Shown: positions 36,484 to 53,298 of the stretch, piece after piece | Numbering within the stretch: position 1 is the stretch's first letter | Layout of the letters: every line of letters starts with the position of its first letter | From: Escherichia coli | Lineage (GTDB): Bacteria; Pseudomonadota; Gammaproteobacteria; Enterobacterales; Enterobacteriaceae | Strand: one strand, 5' to 3' | Length of the DNA stretch: 64,000 bases | NCBI RefSeq assembly: GCF_050920415.1 | Contig: NZ_CP169309.1 | Position numbers and translations under genes: made by a program | The notes under the pieces: generated by a model | What the model was told of the DNA's origin: nothing | Seen by the model: only the letters and a program-made list of their open reading frames with translations | The model's database searches: none

Positions 36484-38061
36484 ATGACGGAAAACATTCA
36501 TAAGCATCGCATCCTCATTCTGGACTTCGGTTCTCAGTACACCCAACTGGTTGCGCGCCGCGTGCGTGAACTGGGTGTTTACTGCGAACTGTGGGCGTGG
36601 GATGTGACAGAAGCACAAATTCGTGACTTCAATCCAAGCGGCATTATTCTTTCCGGCGGCCCGGAAAGCACCACCGAAGAAAACAGCCCGCGTGCGCCAC
36701 AGTATGTCTTTGAAGCAGGCGTACCGGTATTCGGCGTTTGCTATGGTATGCAGACCATGGCAATGCAGTTGGGCGGTCATGTTGAAGCCTCTAACGAACG
36801 TGAATTTGGCTATGCGCAGGTTGAAGTCGTAAACGACAGCGCACTGGTTCGCGGTATCGAAGATGCGCTGACCGCAGACGGTAAACCACTTCTCGATGTC
36901 TGGATGAGCCACGGCGATAAAGTTACCGCTATCCCGTCCGACTTCATCACCGTAGCCAGCACCGAAAGCTGCCCGTTCGCCATCATGGCTAACGAAGAAA
37001 AACGCTTCTACGGCGTACAGTTCCACCCGGAAGTAACTCACACTCGCCAGGGTATGCGCATGCTGGAGCGTTTTGTGCGTGATATCTGCCAGTGTGAAGC
37101 CCTGTGGACGCCAGCGAAAATTATCGACGATGCCGTAGCCCGTATCCGCGAGCAGGTAGGCGACGATAAAGTGATCCTCGGCCTCTCTGGTGGCGTGGAT
37201 TCCTCCGTAACCGCAATGCTGCTGCACCGCGCAATCGGCAAAAACCTGACTTGCGTATTCGTCGACAACGGCCTGCTGCGTCTTAACGAAGCAGAGCAGG
37301 TTCTGGATATGTTTGGCGATCACTTCGGTCTGAACATTGTTCACGTTCCGGCAGAAGATCGCTTCTTGTCAGCGCTGGCTGGCGAAAACGATCCTGAAGC
37401 AAAACGTAAAATCATCGGTCGCGTTTTCGTCGAAGTATTCGATGAAGAAGCGCTGAAACTGGAAGATGTGAAGTGGCTGGCGCAGGGTACTATCTACCCT
37501 GATGTTATCGAATCTGCCGCGTCTGCAACCGGTAAAGCACACGTCATCAAATCTCACCACAACGTGGGCGGCCTGCCGAAAGAGATGAAGATGGGCCTGG
37601 TTGAACCGCTGAAAGAGCTGTTCAAAGACGAAGTGCGTAAGATTGGTCTGGAGCTGGGCCTGCCGTACGACATGCTCTACCGTCACCCGTTCCCGGGACC
37701 AGGCCTCGGCGTTCGTGTTCTGGGTGAAGTGAAGAAAGAGTACTGTGATCTGCTGCGCCGTGCTGACGCCATCTTTATTGAAGAACTGCGTAAAGCGGAC
37801 CTGTACGACAAAGTCAGCCAGGCGTTCACCGTCTTCCTGCCAGTACGTTCCGTTGGTGTAATGGGCGATGGCCGTAAGTATGACTGGGTTGTCTCTCTGC
37901 GTGCTGTCGAAACTATCGACTTTATGACCGCACACTGGGCGCATCTGCCGTACGATTTCCTCGGTCGCGTTTCCAACCGCATTATCAATGAAGTGAACGG
38001 TATTTCCCGCGTGGTGTATGACATCAGCGGCAAGCCGCCGGCGACTATTGAGTGGGAATGA
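36484..38061 (+). CDS. guaA: GMP synthase (glutamine-hydrolysing)
   Basis: 525 aa; GATase domain (GVCYGMQ) and PP-loop SGGVDSS. Confidence 0.95.
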
Positions 38062-38253: not shown

Positions 38254-39504
38254 GTGCTTACCGATACAAAATTAAAAAACCTCAAGCCGCAGGACAAACT
38301 GTACAAGGTCTCCGATCGTGACGGGCTGTATGTAGCTGTGCTTACGTCAGGCACGGTCTCGTTTCGCTATGACTACCGTATCAACGGTCGCCGCGAAACA
38401 CTGGTAATCGGGCAGTATGGGCGTGACGGTATCAGCCTGGCAGAAGCGCGAGAAGAACTGATTGCTGCAAAGAAGCTGCTTAAAGCAGGCCAGTCGCCGG
38501 CTGCGGCTAAACGTGACGGTATCAAAAAGATTCGTGGTGCCGAGACGTTTGCGGTACATACCGACAGTTATATGAAACACGTCATCCTGGCTGACAGTAC
38601 CCGCGCAATGAAGCAGGCGGTGATCGACCGTGACATACTTCCGGTTCTTGGCAACAAAATGATGGCTGAAATTACCACATCGATGGTTCGTGATTTGTGT
38701 GACCGGATTGTCGAACGCGGTGGTCGGGCAACAGCAGTACAGGCCAGGGAGATCATCAGCAGCGTATACCGTCACGCCAATGACCGTGGTCATGGTTTGT
38801 TTAATCCTGCGGCTGACATTAAACCTTCGTCTATCGCCATATTTAAACCACGAGAGCGAACACTGACACCAGAAGAAATTGGCCTGTTCTTCCGCACGCT
38901 GGATGCCATTGGTGCTATGGGCACTATGAAAATGGCTTTAAAGCTGGTGCTTATCACTATGGTTCGTAAAGGCGAATTCACCAATGCAACGTGGGATGAA
39001 ATAGATTTTAAAAAATGGACATGGACAATTCCTTCAGACCGCATGAAGGGAAGCCGGGCGCACGTTATTTACCTGCCTAAACAGGCACAGGATATATTGG
39101 TTGGGTTGCAGATGTGCGCTGGTGGAAGTGAATATCTGGTTCCTGGTCGTTACAATTTCCGGAAGCCATTATCTAATGCCGCGCTGAACTCTCTGATCGA
39201 CAGAACGGTGAAAATAATAAATGAAGATGGTGAGCATATTCAGGGCTTCACCGTACACGATATGCGCCGTACAGCCAGTACGTTGTTGCATGAGGCTGGT
39301 TATCCTTCAGACTGGATTGAAAAGGCTCTGGCACATGAGCAGAAAGGTGTGCGCGCCGTATATAACAAAGCGGAATACGCCAGACAGCGCGCCTACATGT
39401 TGCAGCAGTGGGCCGATATGATTGATTCCTGGATTAACGGGGAGCATACGGATCTGATTCCGTTCTCCCCGTCGAAGTTTGAGAAGTGGATGGCGGGGGA
39501 ATAA
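38254..39504 (+). CDS. int: Tyrosine integrase (P4-type, N-terminal arm-binding domain)
   Basis: 416 aa, GTG start; N-terminal DUF4102-like region and C-terminal catalytic region (HDMRRTASTLL...ALAHE...Y). Confidence 0.85.
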   Translation: MLTDTKLKNLKPQDKLYKVSDRDGLYVAVLTSGTVSFRYDYRINGRRETLVIGQYGRDGISLAEAREELIAAKKLLKAGQSPAAAKRDGIKKIRGAETFAVHTDSYMKHVILADSTRAMKQAVIDRDILPVLGNKMMAEITTSMVRDLCDRIVERGGRATAVQAREIISSVYRHANDRGHGLFNPAADIKPSSIAIFKPRERTLTPEEIGLFFRTLDAIGAMGTMKMALKLVLITMVRKGEFTNATWDEIDFKKWTWTIPSDRMKGSRAHVIYLPKQAQDILVGLQMCAGGSEYLVPGRYNFRKPLSNAALNSLIDRTVKIINEDGEHIQGFTVHDMRRTASTLLHEAGYPSDWIEKALAHEQKGVRAVYNKAEYARQRAYMLQQWADMIDSWINGEHTDLIPFSPSKFEKWMAGE

Positions 39505-39507
39505 CGT

Positions 39508-39702
39508 TTAATAGTTCTGCTGATTTTCTTCCATCTCTGCTTCTGCTGCCAGTGATTCAATTTTGTTTTCGAATATTGCTGACAGTGTTGCAAATTCAGC
39601 ATCAGTGACGGCGGGAATTGGAACAAACCTGATCCCGCTGTGTGCAAGCATGTTTGCAGTTTCAAGGCATTTTCTTAAATCTGCTGGTGATGCCCTGTTC
39701 AT
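39508..39702 (-). CDS. Small hypothetical protein (64 aa), start overlaps the methyltransferase stop (ATGA)
   Basis: Sub-frame of ORF 39508-39822 beginning MNRASPADLRK; ATGA overlap with upstream gene suggests translational coupling. Confidence 0.3.
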   Translation of the reverse strand: MNRASPADLRKCLETANMLAHSGIRFVPIPAVTDAEFATLSAIFENKIESLAAEAEMEENQQNY

Positions 39703-40349
39703 GCAGCACGCTCCCGCCCCTGGTTGTCTGTTGGTGACAGCGGAGAATTGCTGAATGCATTTGTTAATCCGCCAATATCCAACGCGTATCCAGGGTGTAG
39801 TTGCACTGCCGGGTCTTCGCACTGATTACCCCAAACATCGAAGCCATGAGACGACTGGCGGGCGAATAGTTCAATGCGAGAAACATCGCCTAACAATTGC
39901 ACAAGTTTTTCACGAACGACATCTGGTTTTCTTGAGTGCTCAAGCCGCGGTGCGGTAAATGACTGAACGATCCCTGCATTAATGCGCGGAGGTAGTTTTC
40001 CCTTTACCGCAAACAGGCAATCTTCACTATTGGCGCGAGTCATGTGTCCCATACCCATAACAAGTTTATCTGGTTGTCGACTACCACATTTTATCCACGT
40101 GAAGCCCTTCATCGTCATCAGACGGAATCCCCAGGCTTCAACAACTTTTAGTGCTTCGAGTGGTTGTGTTGGCACCCACCACATGGCCAACAGACAGTTT
40201 TCATCGGCCAAATCCCACACAGGAAGGCGGCAGATATCCAGCACACTCATAACCGGATATTTAAAACCGGCACCGCGATTACCATCTGCGGCTTTGTCCC
40301 GGTATACCCAGGGTGGATCTGCATAGATTAGTGTGTATTTCTTAGTCAT
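39699..40349 (-). CDS. MT-A70 family DNA N6-adenine methyltransferase (orphan, no cognate nuclease seen)
   Basis: ORF 39699-40361; ATG at 40349 (MTKKYTLIYADPPW); DPPW catalytic motif. Confidence 0.7.
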   Translation of the reverse strand: MTKKYTLIYADPPWVYRDKAADGNRGAGFKYPVMSVLDICRLPVWDLADENCLLAMWWVPTQPLEALKVVEAWGFRLMTMKGFTWIKCGSRQPDKLVMGMGHMTRANSEDCLFAVKGKLPPRINAGIVQSFTAPRLEHSRKPDVVREKLVQLLGDVSRIELFARQSSHGFDVWGNQCEDPAVQLHPGYALDIGGLTNAFSNSPLSPTDNQGRERAA

Positions 40350-40641
40350 AAACCACCCCACAACATCCTATGCCGCTATAGTCGCCACGGCGAAGGCCGT
40401 TACCTTTTGTGATACATTGGTCCCTGCGAACCGCGATCCTTGCACGTTCAACATCACCAGAAGCAACATCCATACACTGAAGCCAAAGGTGGGCGGCAAT
40501 GCGGAACTGCCCTTTTTTCTCTCTTTCAATCGCGCGTTTTTCGATCTCTATCGCCGCAGGAGTAACGGCGACAATCTTTGACGGACTGCGCATTGAAACC
40601 TTGTTCATGTGATATTTTTCAAGTCGGCTTAACTTTCTCAC
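40342..40641 (-). CDS. PerC-family transcriptional regulator-like protein
   Basis: 99 aa; pattern ...IEREKKGQFRIAAHLWLQCMD...ERARIAVRRDQC resembles the PerC/Pch signature as I recall it. Confidence 0.45.
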   Translation of the reverse strand: MRKLSRLEKYHMNKVSMRSPSKIVAVTPAAIEIEKRAIEREKKGQFRIAAHLWLQCMDVASGDVERARIAVRRDQCITKGNGLRRGDYSGIGCCGVVYD

Positions 40642-40750
40642 TTAATCCAACCCTCTCTGAAAATTAATGCCAGCAGATAAAGCCATGCTGAAACAGAGGC
40701 CAGGAATAAGTACCATCCTGACCATTTGCTCCAGTGCCTTAGCAGCGCAC

Positions 40751-40999
40751 TCATGCAGCGTTGCTCACGGGACGATATACACGTTGCTGAACAGGAGGTT
40801 TTTTACCCTGGAACTCTGCCGGGCTTGCTGCCTGACGTTCATCAAGCCAACGCTCAACTTCGTCACGGTTCCATGCGCAGCGTTTGTCAGTGATATACCA
40901 GCGTTTAGGAAATTCCCCTGCGCGCTCCATACGGTCGATAGTGCTCCATGACAGTGGCACCACCGCCAGGAGTTCCTTCTTACCTAATGCACCTTTCAT
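40751..40999 (-). CDS. AlpA-family phage transcriptional regulator / excisionase-like HTH protein
   Basis: 82 aa; HTH with ...LSWSTIDRMERAGEFPKR...WNRDEVERWL typical of AlpA/Xis. Confidence 0.7.
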   Translation of the reverse strand: MKGALGKKELLAVVPLSWSTIDRMERAGEFPKRWYITDKRCAWNRDEVERWLDERQAASPAEFQGKKPPVQQRVYRPVSNAA

Positions 41000-41048
41000 A
41001 AATACCTCTCTTGGTTGCAGTGCGGCGCGTGTGGCGCCGCGGTGGTGG

Positions 41049-41930
41049 TTACATAGATGTTTCGTTTAATTCTTCCCGACGAACGCTGTAAACGTCGGTG
41101 GCTTTTGCCAGCAGTTCGTCATCATCTGAAAGTTTTTGTGCAATGTATTTGTAAGCCTTATCCAGTTCGGAGACAGTGCTGTAATTCATCGCTGCGCTGG
41201 TAAAGGCCATCAGCATTTCTTCTGGATCACGGCTATCCGCTTTACGAGTTTGCTCATCAGGCTTTTTCACTGGTTTAGCGTTGATCAGACTGTTCATTCC
41301 CGCAGCAGTAGTTGTTTGCGGAGTAATGTCTCGCTCAACGCGCGGTGCCGTTTCCTGTAATTCGTCAGGGGTGTAAACACCGAGAAGCACATCAGGAGCG
41401 TGCAGGCGAGCCCATCGTTTCGTGCAAAGATAGGCAAGCTGCTGGCGCGGATCCTGTTCCCACAATGGAGAGTTACGCACTCCGGCTTGCGCCATACTGA
41501 TGGTAAGCTCACGGGGTTCTGCTTCTCCTTTAAGAACTGCTGACACAGTTACCGTCAGATTCGGTGATTTATCTGTTTTGCCGTTAACATTCGACCAGTC
41601 ACCGCTCCAGCGATAATTCAGGCGTGTCGCTAGCAGGCTGGAAGAGGATACGACCGCGTTTACCAACTGTGCTTCGTAGCCTAACGTTCCGTTTACCACA
41701 TGCGTTTTCTGCGCCACGGCGAAAGGGTTCATTCCCCACTGTGCCGCCTGCATGGTCACCGCCAGACAATCGGCAGTTTTGCCTTCAAGATGTTTCGGTA
41801 CAGTCGCTTTGCTTTGTGACATCAACTCCGCGAAACGCACCAGTTGATTCATGCCCTCCGGGCTGAAGATTGCCGCAGCAGTACCTACAGTTGCGCCTGG
41901 TTGTGATGTGATTGCGATATCATTGCTCAT
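41049..41930 (-). CDS. RecT-family single-strand annealing recombinase
   Basis: 293 aa; RecT-like core; directly downstream of and overlapping a PD-(D/E)XK exonuclease gene. Confidence 0.75.
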   Translation of the reverse strand: MSNDIAITSQPGATVGTAAAIFSPEGMNQLVRFAELMSQSKATVPKHLEGKTADCLAVTMQAAQWGMNPFAVAQKTHVVNGTLGYEAQLVNAVVSSSSLLATRLNYRWSGDWSNVNGKTDKSPNLTVTVSAVLKGEAEPRELTISMAQAGVRNSPLWEQDPRQQLAYLCTKRWARLHAPDVLLGVYTPDELQETAPRVERDITPQTTTAAGMNSLINAKPVKKPDEQTRKADSRDPEEMLMAFTSAAMNYSTVSELDKAYKYIAQKLSDDDELLAKATDVYSVRREELNETSM

Positions 41931-42748
41931 ACGTACATATCCTGTTTACGTGCCCAGTCAGGGCGTTTAATAATTTCCACGCCGCCCCATTCATCATTGA
42001 TGCGGCATTCGTGATAGGTATTCAGATCCCGGCGGAACAGAGCGTGCCCGGCATCGACATCCGGCGCATCCAGCTCGAACACGCGTACCGGATACCGACC
42101 ACAATCAATGCTTTCGCTCACGGCAAGAAAGAAAAAACCATGCGACTGACCAGTAACCCTCATTGCGCCTTCGCGGTACATTGCGTCCTGCACGTGGTAG
42201 CGGAATTCCTCGATGTGGCGTGCAAAACGATCCATATCTGCAACCTTTTTCACGTCGACGATCACGTTGTGCTCGTTCAGCCATTTGTCTGGACGAATGC
42301 GGCACAACTCACCAGTCTCTTCATCATTCCAGTACATTGATGCTTCGCAGTAACCAGGTGCTTCCAGCATCCAGCGTGCCGCCGGGTGAGCCATTGCGCT
42401 ATCACGCATCAGCTCCAGTTTCCGCCACTGCTCGGCATCAAGTACCGTAATCCCCATATCCGCTACATCACGAAGAAATGCTTCTTCGTCAGCTTTACCT
42501 TGTTTCGTCCGACGATCGAACTTCGGTGAAACAATGAAGCGTTTGTCGAATTCTCCAGGCTCCAGAAGCAGAGAGTGCAATGCGGTTCCCATATCCAGTG
42601 CAGACTTTTTCTCTTCGTCTTCTGGTGCTGCCTGAACCCATTTAAGAAGCGCCGGATTCTTGGCAACCATGTCCAGTTGCGACTTACTCACGCCGTCACC
42701 GGCGTGGTAGTCTTCGTTGCTGATGTCGAAATAAATTCCCGGTTTCAT
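41927..42748 (-). CDS. PD-(D/E)XK-type exonuclease (RecE/YqaJ-like partner of RecT)
   Basis: 273 aa; motifs D..EYH, IVDVKK consistent with PD-(D/E)XK nuclease fold; 4-bp overlap with recT. Confidence 0.65.
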   Translation of the reverse strand: MKPGIYFDISNEDYHAGDGVSKSQLDMVAKNPALLKWVQAAPEDEEKKSALDMGTALHSLLLEPGEFDKRFIVSPKFDRRTKQGKADEEAFLRDVADMGITVLDAEQWRKLELMRDSAMAHPAARWMLEAPGYCEASMYWNDEETGELCRIRPDKWLNEHNVIVDVKKVADMDRFARHIEEFRYHVQDAMYREGAMRVTGQSHGFFFLAVSESIDCGRYPVRVFELDAPDVDAGHALFRRDLNTYHECRINDEWGGVEIIKRPDWARKQDMYV

Positions 42749-43050
42749 GCCGCTTCCCTCTGCCCATCAATCCGATCCGCCAGATCCCAGCGGGCGATAA
42801 TTGCCATTGCCTCGCGACGGTAGGCATCCATAAGTTCTTCGAACTCAGGGCTGTCTTTAGCTGCCTCCAGCACTTCCTGGCGAACGCCTTTGCCTGTTAC
42901 ACCGTCAAAAGTTGAGGCCAGTTGATGAAGCCGGATGCTATCAATCAGTTCAACTTGTCGGTCATATAGCTGTTCTGACAGGCGGTAGTCCTTGTCGAAT
43001 GCCAGCATGATTTTTTGAAGATTTTTCTGCTGATTAACGTTCATACCCAC
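42745..43050 (-). CDS. Hypothetical phage protein (101 aa)
   Basis: ORF with overlapping stop/start junctions inside the leftward early operon. Confidence 0.5.
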   Translation of the reverse strand: MGMNVNQQKNLQKIMLAFDKDYRLSEQLYDRQVELIDSIRLHQLASTFDGVTGKGVRQEVLEAAKDSPEFEELMDAYRREAMAIIARWDLADRIDGQREAA

Positions 43051-43051
43051 C

Positions 43052-44086
43052 TCAATATTTGATATACGCGTCCTGCACTTTGCCGCCAGCGATAGCCAAC
43101 ATTGCTTTCTGCGCGAATTCTTCGGGAATGCCTTGGGCTATCAGATCTGCGATTACTCTGCTGTTAACGGTACGGCGATGCTCTTTATCTGCAGCTCGGC
43201 GCGATTCTTCGTCGGCGATACGCTTCTGTTCGTCAAGGCGGGCTTTTTCTGCCGCCTCTTGGCGTCGGCGTTCCTCGGCAACGGCTTCTTCTTTTTCGCG
43301 TCGTGCACGCTGCTCTGCTTCAATTCGCTGACGTTCTGCTACTTCAGCACGTGCTTTTTCTTCCGCCGCCAGGCGTTCCGCAGCCTCAATTTCAGCTTTC
43401 GCTTTTTGTTCAGCTTCGAGCCTGGCCTGTTCAGCAGCTTCCCGGCGGATATTCTCTTCTCGCTCAATGCGCGCTTTTTCCTCCGCTTCTTTGCGAAGTC
43501 GCTCCAGCTCAGCGGCTTCATGCTCGCGTTTTTGAGCTACTGCGAGTGATTCTTCCAGTTTCTGGATGGTTGAATCCTTGGCTACTCCAGCTTCTGCTGC
43601 GTACTCCTGCCAACTTTCATCAAGTGCTACTGATTTAGCCTCTTGAATTCGTTCCTGAATATCAGATGATGGCAAGTAGTTTCCGGAGAGATCGATCACG
43701 TCAGCTAGTGCTCGCAAATTTGTCAGGCGTTGTTGCAGTGCTTCAGTGCGTAATTTCTCCGCATTTTCCCACTCGGTGAGTGGGCGGCGTACTTCATCAC
43801 GAAGCCGATCGCATTCGGTTACGAAGCGTCGTAACTCTGCTTCAACTACTTTCGGCTGTTCTTTCAGGCGTTTCAGATAATCACGTCCTGGTTTTTCTAC
43901 CGCTGTTTTACTTCTTGAAACCTTCGCAGCCAGAGATGCAATGCGCTTTCTGCCTTTGTCTGTGCTAATGTCAGGCACTTCATTAACACCTTCACGGATC
44001 TGCTCGAGAAACTTTTCCAGCCCTTTTTCAACGTAAATTCTTGGTGCCATGTCTGGTGTGATTTCGATGATTGATAATTCACTCAT
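43052..44086 (-). CDS. Hypothetical coiled-coil protein with E/R/A-rich low-complexity repeat region
   Basis: 344 aa; residues ~190-300 are almost pure E/A/R/K heptad-like repeats. Confidence 0.55.
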   Translation of the reverse strand: MSELSIIEITPDMAPRIYVEKGLEKFLEQIREGVNEVPDISTDKGRKRIASLAAKVSRSKTAVEKPGRDYLKRLKEQPKVVEAELRRFVTECDRLRDEVRRPLTEWENAEKLRTEALQQRLTNLRALADVIDLSGNYLPSSDIQERIQEAKSVALDESWQEYAAEAGVAKDSTIQKLEESLAVAQKREHEAAELERLRKEAEEKARIEREENIRREAAEQARLEAEQKAKAEIEAAERLAAEEKARAEVAERQRIEAEQRARREKEEAVAEERRRQEAAEKARLDEQKRIADEESRRAADKEHRRTVNSRVIADLIAQGIPEEFAQKAMLAIAGGKVQDAYIKY

Positions 44087-44244
44087 TTGCTAACCTCCTC
44101 CCATATCTCGTTATCGTTGGCCACATCGCGAGCTTCTTTGCTGACGAAAGCCCACTTAATGCCTTCCTGTAAGGTGCGGAACTTCCAGCTCATGAATCCG
44201 CATGCAGTAACGCAGTACCAACCGTTGATGATTTTCCACTGCAT
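44083..44244 (-). CDS. Small hypothetical protein (53 aa), first gene of leftward early operon
   Basis: Not in ORF track (below 60 aa); MQWKIINGWYCVTACGFMSWKFRTLQEGIKWAFVSKEARDVANDNEIWEEVSK; stop overlaps next start. Confidence 0.3.
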   Translation of the reverse strand: MQWKIINGWYCVTACGFMSWKFRTLQEGIKWAFVSKEARDVANDNEIWEEVSK

Positions 44245-44325
44245 AACTTGTTACCTCGGTCTGTTACCGTTGAGGTAATAATTATGCGTATCTGGTTTGA
44301 TGTCAATAGATATGAGTTAAAAAAA

Positions 44326-44340
44326 TTACCCGTTAGGTAA
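44326..44340. promoter_or_regulatory. Palindromic operator-like site TTACCCGTTAGGTAA at the leftward early promoter
   Basis: TTACCT-N3-AGGTAA family, 1 mismatch; lies between the repressor terminator and the first leftward early gene. Confidence 0.45.
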
Positions 44341-44350
44341 TCGAATAGGC

Positions 44351-44377
44351 AATAAAAAAGCCGCCATAAGGCGGCTT
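44351..44377 (-). terminator. Rho-independent terminator of the repressor gene (hairpin aagccgcc-ataa-ggcggctt, T-run on minus strand)
   Basis: Read directly; U-tract present only in the minus-strand orientation. Confidence 0.6.
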
Positions 44378-44397: not shown

Positions 44398-44982
44398 TTA
44401 TTGTTTGTTTTTTTCGTTCTGGTTGATGACAAATTCAATGTAACTTTCGATCTTTGCCTTCTCTGTTTCAGGTAACAATGCGTAGCGCGAGCGGTCATAG
44501 TTGATAGTTGCAGGGTCATGCGGATGAATCAGTAGTTCATATCCGTGACGCCCGAATGCAGATGCAACATTCTCCAGGGTGGAAATGGAAACGCTGACCT
44601 CATTGTTTAACAGGCGGCTGATTGTCACCTGGGCGACGCCGGATGCGCGGTGAAGTTTTCCCTGTGTTGAAAGGTCGCGGCTTTCGCTCATCCAGCGTTC
44701 CAGGTTGTGAGCCGCCAGCTGACCAATGTCGCTTGGGCCGACAGGCTGAAAACCTTCCTGAGAAAGCGAGCGATCGATATCAAGCCAGTTACGGGGTTTA
44801 TTGGCGGCAGCTTCAATTTTTCGCGCAACCTGGTCGCCGATAACCTTCTTGCCAAGAGCCCAGCGGTTTACCAGATTTGCCTGAGTTCCAAGTTTTTCTG
44901 CCATCCGCGTCTGAACACCATTGAATTCACGGTCGATCAAGTCGTTGAGATTTTGCCTGCGGACGTCCTGGATACTTTTCAT
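44398..44982 (-). CDS. Phage CI-like repressor (HTH, Phage_CI_repr-type)
   Basis: 194 aa; N-terminal HTH (QTRMAEKLGTQANLVNRWALGKK) and second HTH-like segment; divergent from a Cro-like gene across an operator-rich spacer. Confidence 0.55.
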   Translation of the reverse strand: MKSIQDVRRQNLNDLIDREFNGVQTRMAEKLGTQANLVNRWALGKKVIGDQVARKIEAAANKPRNWLDIDRSLSQEGFQPVGPSDIGQLAAHNLERWMSESRDLSTQGKLHRASGVAQVTISRLLNNEVSVSISTLENVASAFGRHGYELLIHPHDPATINYDRSRYALLPETEKAKIESYIEFVINQNEKNKQ

Positions 44983-53017: not shown

Positions 53018-53221
53018 AGTCTAATCTCACCTTAAAAAAATGCCCGGCGAACCGGGCGAACTGGAAGCAATGAGTTATGCCTTCCGTGGCTGTACTGGTT
53101 TACAGCATGAAGCCATCGCAATGGCGTCCTGCTGTAAAAAGGGCGGTGATAGTCCTTCAAGGGAAACCATCACCGCCAAGCCCCTGGAACTTCTGGCATC
53201 ACGGTCCTTAGGCGTGATTCT

Positions 53222-53298
53222 GGCGTGGCATGCAGGATTCGAACCTGCGACCGACCGCTTAGAAGGCGGTTGCTCTGTCCAACTGAGCTAATGCCACA
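53222..53298 (-). tRNA. tRNA-Arg (anticodon UCU), argU-like, prophage-encoded
   Basis: Folded by hand: acceptor GTGGCAT/ATGCCAC, D-arm GCTC..GAGC, anticodon stem ACCGC/GCGGT with loop CTTCTAA, T-arm GCAGG-TTCGAAT-CCTGC, discriminator G, CCA. Confidence 0.8.

Follow-up and report, generated by a model that had tools for sequence, protein, structure and literature searches.

A homologue of phi80 Agt/Mog with a long charged helix in the early-left recombination operon of a phiV10-like Escherichia coli prophage

What might a protein with a long run of charged residues be doing upstream of a phage recombination module? This question is raised by positions 41049-44244 of a 64,000-nt stretch of Escherichia coli DNA (assembly GCF_050920415.1, contig NZ_CP169309.1), hereafter the window. 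A first-pass annotation, made from the sequence alone, had described here a Red-like recombination module preceded by a coiled-coil protein and small proteins, in open reading frames (ORFs) of 53, 344, 101, 273 and 293 amino acids (aa). All five are present on the minus strand where it had placed them. The 101-aa frame exists at 42745-43050, but its start is more likely the ATG at 43044, giving 99 aa; this start is backed by the RefSeq and phiV10 annotations, and conservation with phages phiV10 and TL-2011b begins there. In order from the first gene, and with the charged segment in its place, the features are as follows.

44083-44244, minus strand: first gene, 53 aa (phrog_898, E 3e-38), homologue of phiV10 p39
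43052-44086, minus strand: 344-aa homologue of phi80 Agt/Mog (phrog_1376)
43214-43543, minus strand: E/A/R/K-rich segment, codons 182-291 of the 344-aa gene, defined by composition
42745-43044, minus strand: 99-aa acidic protein, predicted all-helical (phrog_856, E 1.9e-54)
41927-42748, minus strand: short RecE/ExoVIII-type exonuclease, 273 aa, catalytic core only, predicted to degrade double-stranded DNA 5'-3'
41049-41930, minus strand: RecT-family single-strand annealing protein (SSAP), 293 aa (Pfam PF03837; phrog_561)

By sequence comparison, the 344-aa protein is a homologue of Agt/Mog of phage phi80. A tblastn search of phage genomes found relatives encoded in 180 records, of which the second best was phi80, gene PHI80_40 (56% identity, E 7e-96, full length, with both the N- and C-terminal domains aligned). 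The C-terminal domain is nearly identical between the two proteins, and the 3' 260 bp of the gene share 81% DNA identity with phi80 agt. In PHROGs, the protein matches phrog_1376 (E 1e-121), a family of unknown function. GenBank annotates PHI80_40 as 'agt: anti-toxin for Gam; Mog (modifier of Gam)', and the gene that follows it in phi80, gamL, as 'host RecBCD/SbcCD enzymes inhibitor; toxic without Mog'; RecT comes next, and then a lambda-Exo-like nuclease. The view that Agt would neutralise Gam-type toxicity rests on this annotation of phi80. A Gam-like function had been guessed for the 344-aa protein; the tie to Gam stands, as the protein is a homologue of a Gam modifier or anti-toxin, and not of an inhibitor. 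Rotman et al. reportedly described, in 2012, an E. coli-toxic gene met while sequencing phi80. In the searched passages of a 2025 survey of lambdoid Rec modules (PMC12315714), GamL is one of four anti-RecBCD types and Agt is not mentioned.

The phi80 (Lula) region and the present locus share their order, with Agt first, then a small acidic protein (about 95 residues in phi80), then the recombination genes. They differ in that the 99-aa protein is not a GamL homologue, and in the nuclease, which in phi80 is of the lambda-Exo/YqaJ type and follows RecT but here is of the RecE type and comes before it. We also observed agt, about 70-73% identical to the gene in the window, in three genomes labelled 'Laboratory developed' or 'laboratory' (NZ_CP188163, NZ_CP188132 and NZ_CP110017), which would fit contamination with phi80/Lula.

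The family of Agt and the 344-aa protein is very large. With the N-terminal 130 residues as query, an exhaustive HMMER search returned 4717 cluster representatives (clustered at 50% identity) at E <=0.001, and 2228 clusters at E <=1e-10; none of 40 diverse members matches any family in Pfam. Its members are found in early-left operons across many phages of Proteobacteria, phi80, Sf6 and the Pseudomonas phages phi_D3 and JBD44 among them, and hence the low-complexity segment is not the oddity for an early gene that it was first taken to be. In alignments, the N-terminal domain is conserved, with the motifs VPD.ST.KGR..I.S.A..V..SK and PLTEWE, as is a C-terminal domain of about 45 residues that ends in Y; the middle is variable and holds a charged helix of variable length. 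Across 52 diverse members, this spacer is 57-249 residues long (median 189).

To see what lies downstream of the gene, we took 80 viral-contig loci from IMG/VR carrying relatives 42-99% identical to the 344-aa protein, called and clustered their ORFs, and typed the representatives with Pfam. An SSAP gene was among the next five same-strand downstream genes in 73 of the 80 loci, the median distance being 366 bp; as the loci were chosen for the best scores and are not independent, all fractions from them are indicative only. The modules downstream of the Agt-like gene fall into the following types.

26 loci: RecE-like exonuclease and RecT
16 loci: RecT and a YqaJ exonuclease
13 loci: Rad52-like protein and single-stranded DNA-binding protein (SSB)
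4 loci: Sak4-like protein (AAA_24), with or without SSB

Beyond this sample, the relative in Shigella phage Sf6 is gene 33, upstream of cIII, kil, Erf, SSB and an Abc2-like gene, and two of three very distant metagenomic members lie beside RecT. One distant metagenomic relative (locus L007, 1-5968) sits in a larger cluster of DNA-transaction genes, which encodes a YqaJ exonuclease, RecT, SSB, RdgC-FtsK-gamma, a RecA-dependent nuclease and an RNase T-like exonuclease.

Small acidic proteins (isoelectric point, pI, 4.1-5.1) are usually encoded in the gap that separates the Agt-like gene from the recombination genes. These are of the 99-aa type in at least 21 loci and of the GamL type in about 15, and an acidic pair of 65 aa and 52 aa fills the gap in 12-13. 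In six loci there is no gap, and the Agt-like gene abuts RecT. Although optional, the Agt-like family is thus a regular neighbour, on the upstream side, of phage recombination modules of diverse kinds, and small acidic proteins usually accompany it. N-domain identity tracks the type of module, a pattern inseparable from shared ancestry. Two further features of these loci caught our attention. The 65-aa (pI about 4.6) and 52-aa (pI about 4.2) proteins (locus L032, 5915-6267, and 11-12 similar loci) are always paired and always lie between the Agt-like gene and the Rad52-like and SSB genes. In two other loci (L041, 4361-4873, and L042), a 170-aa protein with no Pfam match lies between the Agt-like gene and the YqaJ exonuclease; from this position, that of an annealing protein, it may be an unrecognised type of SSAP or SSB.

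How is the 344-aa protein built? Residues 1-126 form a helical domain at the N-terminus; after a small insert comes the long charged helix, and a domain of about 45 residues closes the protein at the C-terminus. Its AlphaFold model (predicted local distance difference test, pLDDT, 87) is all-helical, with one uninterrupted 160-residue helix at 157-317, whose block-mean pLDDT is about 90 or above to residue 260 and 76-84 across 261-310. The first-pass annotation had remarked on about 110 residues of near-pure E/A/R/K repeat. Such a segment is real; these four residues make up at least 75% of every 20-residue window across residues 182-291 (110 residues), although 'near-pure' is slightly generous for the 78-79% found in the residue ranges measured around it. 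A tandem repeat as the source of the segment was rejected, as there is none at the DNA level.

The description of a coiled-coil protein fares less well. Only 10% of the residues in the charged segment are hydrophobic, and the a/d positions are at most 15% hydrophobic in any register; with so few hydrophobic residues, and with no hydrophobic heptad in any register, the segment looks unlike a classical coiled coil and is best read as a spacer of the ER/K single alpha-helix type. Opposite charges at i/i+4 are frequent in the 120 residues counted, with 18 pairs running from E/D to K/R and 22 from K/R to E/D.

Other searches with the 344-aa protein gave no name to its domains. It had no match in Pfam even at E <=10, and nothing beyond low-complexity matches in NCBIfam, PADLOC or the sequence and profile searches of the PDB, where the profile matches were to charged helices only (for example Zuotin and a Dot/Icm substrate). 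Foldseek found no match to the model in the PDB at E <=0.001, and a structure search of BFVD returned unnamed family members only. Neither profile nor structure searches detected a DNA-binding or known interaction domain.

What of the recombination genes themselves? The first-pass annotation had called a RecT with a PD-(D/E)XK exonuclease, and profile comparison bears this out for both proteins. The 293-aa protein matches Pfam RecT (PF03837; E 4.8e-31, 108 bits, cut-off 24) over residues 35-197, which leaves a tail of about 95 residues, and also the RecT-like phrog_561 (E 4.5e-144); sequence search matched it to no solved structure. The 273-aa protein matches PF12684 (DUF3799, PDDEXK-like; E 1.6e-22) and, over residues 12-268, the C-terminal nuclease domain of RecE (PDB 3H4R, E 2.4e-76). 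Its GTA.H (GTALH), RPDK and DVK (VDVK) motifs align with identical positions in RecE, giving H58, D154, D165 and K167 as the putative active-site residues; the choice of catalytic residues in RecE follows the structural work on that protein. In the NCBIfam model of exodeoxyribonuclease VIII, an equivalog model, it covers only positions 606-873. The region of about 600 residues at the N-terminus of Rac RecE is missing, and the full-length architecture with it, and therefore the protein scores far under the cut-off (310 bits against 1269). By its alignment, we consider it a minimal RecE core and not an ExoVIII equivalog.

Together, the two genes would form a RecET-type recombination pair, an activity predicted from their families and from what is known of RecET and lambda Red. 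The pair resembles Rac RecE/RecT in its exonuclease, which can be aligned from end to end with the catalytic domain of RecE, keeps the catalytic residues, and adjoins and is apparently coupled to a RecT-family annealing protein. It differs in comprising a core of only about 270 residues, without the N-terminal part of Rac RecE, and in that its RecT is of another subfamily (phrog_561). In phiV10, the two genes are annotated as one in-frame RecE-core::RecT fusion ORF of 587 codons (locus L004, 3050-4810). The exonuclease is 97% identical to its phiV10 counterpart and RecT only 74% identical to the RecT part of phiV10 p37, which points to a mosaic joint inside the module.

Next to the exonuclease, the 99-aa protein (pI 4.8) occupies the slot of phi80 gamL. 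Its gene overlaps the start of the exonuclease gene by 4 nt at its 3' end, and AlphaFold predicts helices at 3-51, 56-64 and 66-98 (pLDDT 73). The phrog_856 family is confined to Enterobacteriaceae (67 clusters, all 'hypothetical'). Gam-like or Kil-like functions had been suggested for this small protein, but we found nothing in support of Kil, and neither sequence nor profile comparison identified it as a homologue of Gam or GamL. It shows no homology to the GamL family (hhalign probability 0.17-0.19%) and no significant similarity to lambda Gam (hhalign 10%, E 0.003), while the positive control, the GamL family against lambda Gam, gave weak homology (hhalign 56%, E 1e-4). The gene downstream of the 344-aa gene is thus unrelated to gamL by sequence. 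With no such homology, the 99-aa protein is a candidate host-nuclease inhibitor by its position, size and charge only, and a small acidic protein in this upstream position is not specific to the family.

The Agt-like gene is itself optional. BLAST mapping of the junctions against phiV10 and TL-2011b defines a cassette as follows.

43045-44096, minus strand: 1052-bp cassette with the Agt-like gene

In place of the cassette, phiV10 and TL-2011b have 7 nt, and GAGG is found at both junctions; relative to these two phages, it is by alignment a clean insertion. Both phages keep the 53-aa-type, 99-aa, exonuclease and RecT genes. Of the 564 complete E. coli genomes that match the region, only 26 had at least 80% of it covered. 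In a sensitive search with the 344-aa gene alone, 140 of 5426 genomes had the gene, and in 35 of these the identity reached at least 95%.

Our explanation for the locus as a whole is that it is an early-left recombination operon made up of a RecET-type pair and an Agt-like modulator, with the 99-aa protein as the modulator's likely partner; we consider this reading quite probable. On induction of the prophage, transcription from the repressor-controlled promoter near 44300 would yield five translationally coupled proteins. The 273-aa minimal RecE would resect double-stranded DNA ends 5' to 3', leaving 3' single strands that the 293-aa RecT would coat and anneal; in this the pair would be analogous to lambda Exo/Bet, with homology as the finding and activity as the expectation from families. 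According to its GenBank record, phi80 makes the RecBCD/SbcCD inhibitor GamL tolerable by means of Agt/Mog, as anti-toxin or modifier. The 344-aa protein may likewise modulate a small partner of the nuclease-inhibitor type, or otherwise aid the recombination module, and its architecture, with a long ER/K helix between two conserved end domains, would be suited to this. Position, charge and size would make the acidic, helical 99-aa protein its most likely partner.

Four observations weigh against this explanation. First, the 99-aa gene is present in phiV10 and TL-2011b although these lack the Agt-like gene, and therefore a phage genome with the former does not require the latter. Second, many family members do not lie beside a GamL gene, as in the six loci with RecT directly adjacent and in Sf6, where cIII and kil intervene. 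Third, variants of the C-terminal domain are shuffled independently of the small protein downstream. Fourth, we found no experiment on the 344-aa protein or its close relatives, and the function of Agt is that given in the GenBank annotation.

A clearly less probable explanation gives the 344-aa protein a general part in phage single-strand-annealing recombination, as an accessory or scaffold factor, and not the specific one of an anti-toxin for Gam. It might act as a tether between recombination proteins and a host target or DNA, with the ER/K helix setting a fixed distance, and the 'anti-toxin' phenotype of phi80 would then be one manifestation of a general role. The ties of the family to several types of SSAP, whether or not GamL is present, would fit this well, as would the six loci in which the gene abuts RecT directly and the family-wide retention of two conserved end domains with a spacer of 57-249 residues between them. 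Phages of Firmicutes also fill the same slot with Mu-Gam-like, DUF2483, DUF1351 or gp157 genes thought to be analogous (PMC8093625). However, the sole functional label in the family is Gam-related, the searches above detected no domain for binding DNA or a known partner, and the gene is dispensable in phiV10 and TL-2011b despite the same exonuclease and RecT genes.

The likeness to the Firmicutes genes is one of position. The DUF1351, Sipho_Gp157, DUF2483 and Mu-Gam-like genes lie directly upstream of Erf, Sak4 or RecT modules, and DUF1351, the upstream neighbour of SSAP genes in Firmicutes phages (PMC8093625), is also of similar size (about 300 aa), but we detected no homology between it and the 344-aa protein. 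Against the DUF1351 (PF07083) protein and alignment of Oenococcus phage phi9805, hhalign gave 0.25% and 0.5%, with no Pfam match, and we rejected this relationship. We found no DUF1351 gene in Staphylococcus phage 80alpha.

It is improbable that the 344-aa gene is instead a moron-like cassette unrelated to recombination, with a role in superinfection exclusion, defence or anti-defence. Such a cassette could be expected from the clean insertion or deletion, the size of one gene, that sets the locus apart from phiV10 and TL-2011b, and from the presence of the gene in only a few percent of the E. coli genomes that carry the module. However, the gene has no promoter of its own and appears translationally coupled to the gene upstream, and no PADLOC defence model matches its product or any of the other four proteins. 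Its position upstream of recombination genes is also kept in very divergent phages, and the phi80 annotation is related to Gam.

Finally, a TolA-like or cell-envelope protein is effectively refuted as a low-complexity artefact of the charged helix, for although homologues in JBD44, mEp234 and other phages are labelled 'TolA protein' or 'cell envelope biogenesis protein' and NCBIfam TolA gives a weak match (E 0.004), this match reaches 16 bits against a cut-off of 213 and falls mainly on the low-complexity helix (residues 151-301), the AlphaFold model has no hydrophobic N-terminal anchor, the conserved end domains have no counterpart in TolA, and the PDB profile matches are likewise to charged helices.

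Where does the operon that would carry the Agt-like modulator lie? The chromosomal part of the window is guaB-guaA, with guaA ending at 38061 in the ORF listing, which also gives a minus-strand string of genes from 44982 down to 39508 and the following gene.

38254-39504, plus strand: tyrosine integrase

The interval 41000-44300 is 100% identical to several E. coli RefSeq chromosomes that have guaA, the integrase and the same gene order, and the region shares 98.5% identity with phiv142-3, a temperate phage of the genus Uetakevirus. We therefore place it, from these alignments, in a phiV10/epsilon15-like prophage (Uetakevirus) beside guaA, as the recombination section of that prophage's early-left (PL) operon. 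The identical RefSeq loci are annotated with guaB, guaA, integrase, DUF1382, MT-A70 methylase, PerC and a helix-turn-helix (HTH) regulator, then the recombination genes ('RecT family recombinase' and 'PD-(D/E)XK nuclease-like domain-containing protein'), three hypothetical proteins and an HTH repressor. The module is thus ordinary, and already annotated as RecT with a nuclease.

The order of repressor, 50-53-aa gene, 99-aa gene, exonuclease, RecT, AlpA, PerC, MT-A70, DUF1382 and integrase is shared with phiV10, epsilon15, TL-2011b and phiv142-3; phiv142-3 also has the 344-aa gene, whereas phiV10 and TL-2011b lack the cassette and phiV10 differs further in its fused exonuclease and RecT. In the window, the operon past RecT (39508-40999, minus strand) encodes an AlpA/excisionase-like protein, a PerC-family regulator, an MT-A70 DNA methyltransferase and a DUF1382 protein. 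A DUF1382 gene, orf63, is likewise found in lambda immediately past exo. A tRNA-Arg(tct) gene (53221-53297, minus strand) lies about 15 kb downstream of the integrase, apparently within the prophage.

The genes of the operon are tightly packed. The 99-aa and exonuclease genes overlap by 4 nt, as do those for the exonuclease and RecT, where stop and start share ATGA; these overlaps suggest that the five genes are translationally coupled. The 53-aa gene had been said to overlap the start of the 344-aa gene, and it does, its stop sharing ATGA (44083-44086) with that start. The 53-aa protein itself had no match in Pfam, NCBIfam or PADLOC. Upstream of it, we read the following signals from the DNA.

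44278-44306, minus strand: sigma-70-like early-left (PL-type) promoter, TTGACA-17 nt-AATTAT, with 10 of 12 consensus matches
44264-44279 and 44326-44341, no strand assigned: two 16-nt near-palindromes, TTACC(N6)GGTAAT, candidate operators (direct-repeat family D1, 81% identity)
44358-44377, minus strand: intrinsic terminator after the repressor gene, an 8-bp GC-rich stem followed by a T run

The promoter would lie between the repressor terminator and the first gene. The two near-palindromes, spaced 62 nt apart, lie to either side of the promoter or overlap it; the 194-aa double-HTH repressor (gene at 44398-44982) probably uses them as its operators. A terminator is annotated at the equivalent place in phiV10, and here it marks the upstream boundary of the operon. 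As consensus matches only, these signals suggest the layout of a repressor-controlled PL promoter.

Lambda Red (gam-bet-exo) offers a last comparison. Both systems have their place in the PL operon, and both have a slot for an inhibitor (a candidate one here), an annealing protein and a 5'-3' exonuclease. The exonuclease here is of the RecE-type core and not of the lambda Exo family, the 99-aa protein has no significant similarity to Gam, and lambda has no Agt-like gene; Bet and the 293-aa RecT are likened by a shared RecT-like label only.

The module itself adds nothing new, as RecET-type pairs in phiV10-like prophages were already annotated. The new leads are modest ones, the link to Agt and the synteny across the family. 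They tie a very large family, until now labelled 'hypothetical', 'coiled-coil' or 'TolA', to a named member, phi80 Agt/Mog; they show its consistent position upstream of recombination modules from several unrelated families of annealing protein; and the charged segment is re-read as a single-helix spacer. Tentatively, and with more doubt than confidence, we extend this to the suggestion that Agt/Mog-like proteins (phrog_1376) are a general, unrecognised component of recombination modules in Proteobacteria phages, in which an ER/K spacer would help to control small acidic inhibitors of host nucleases, and that the 99-aa protein and the 65-aa/52-aa pair would be new anti-RecBCD/SbcCD types. Abortive-infection systems sense the inhibition of RecBCD, so that a phage has cause to keep its own inhibitors in check. 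If the role of Gam modifier generalises, the family would be a pointer to new host-nuclease inhibitors, and could improve recombineering toolkits, where the toxicity of Gam is a practical problem.

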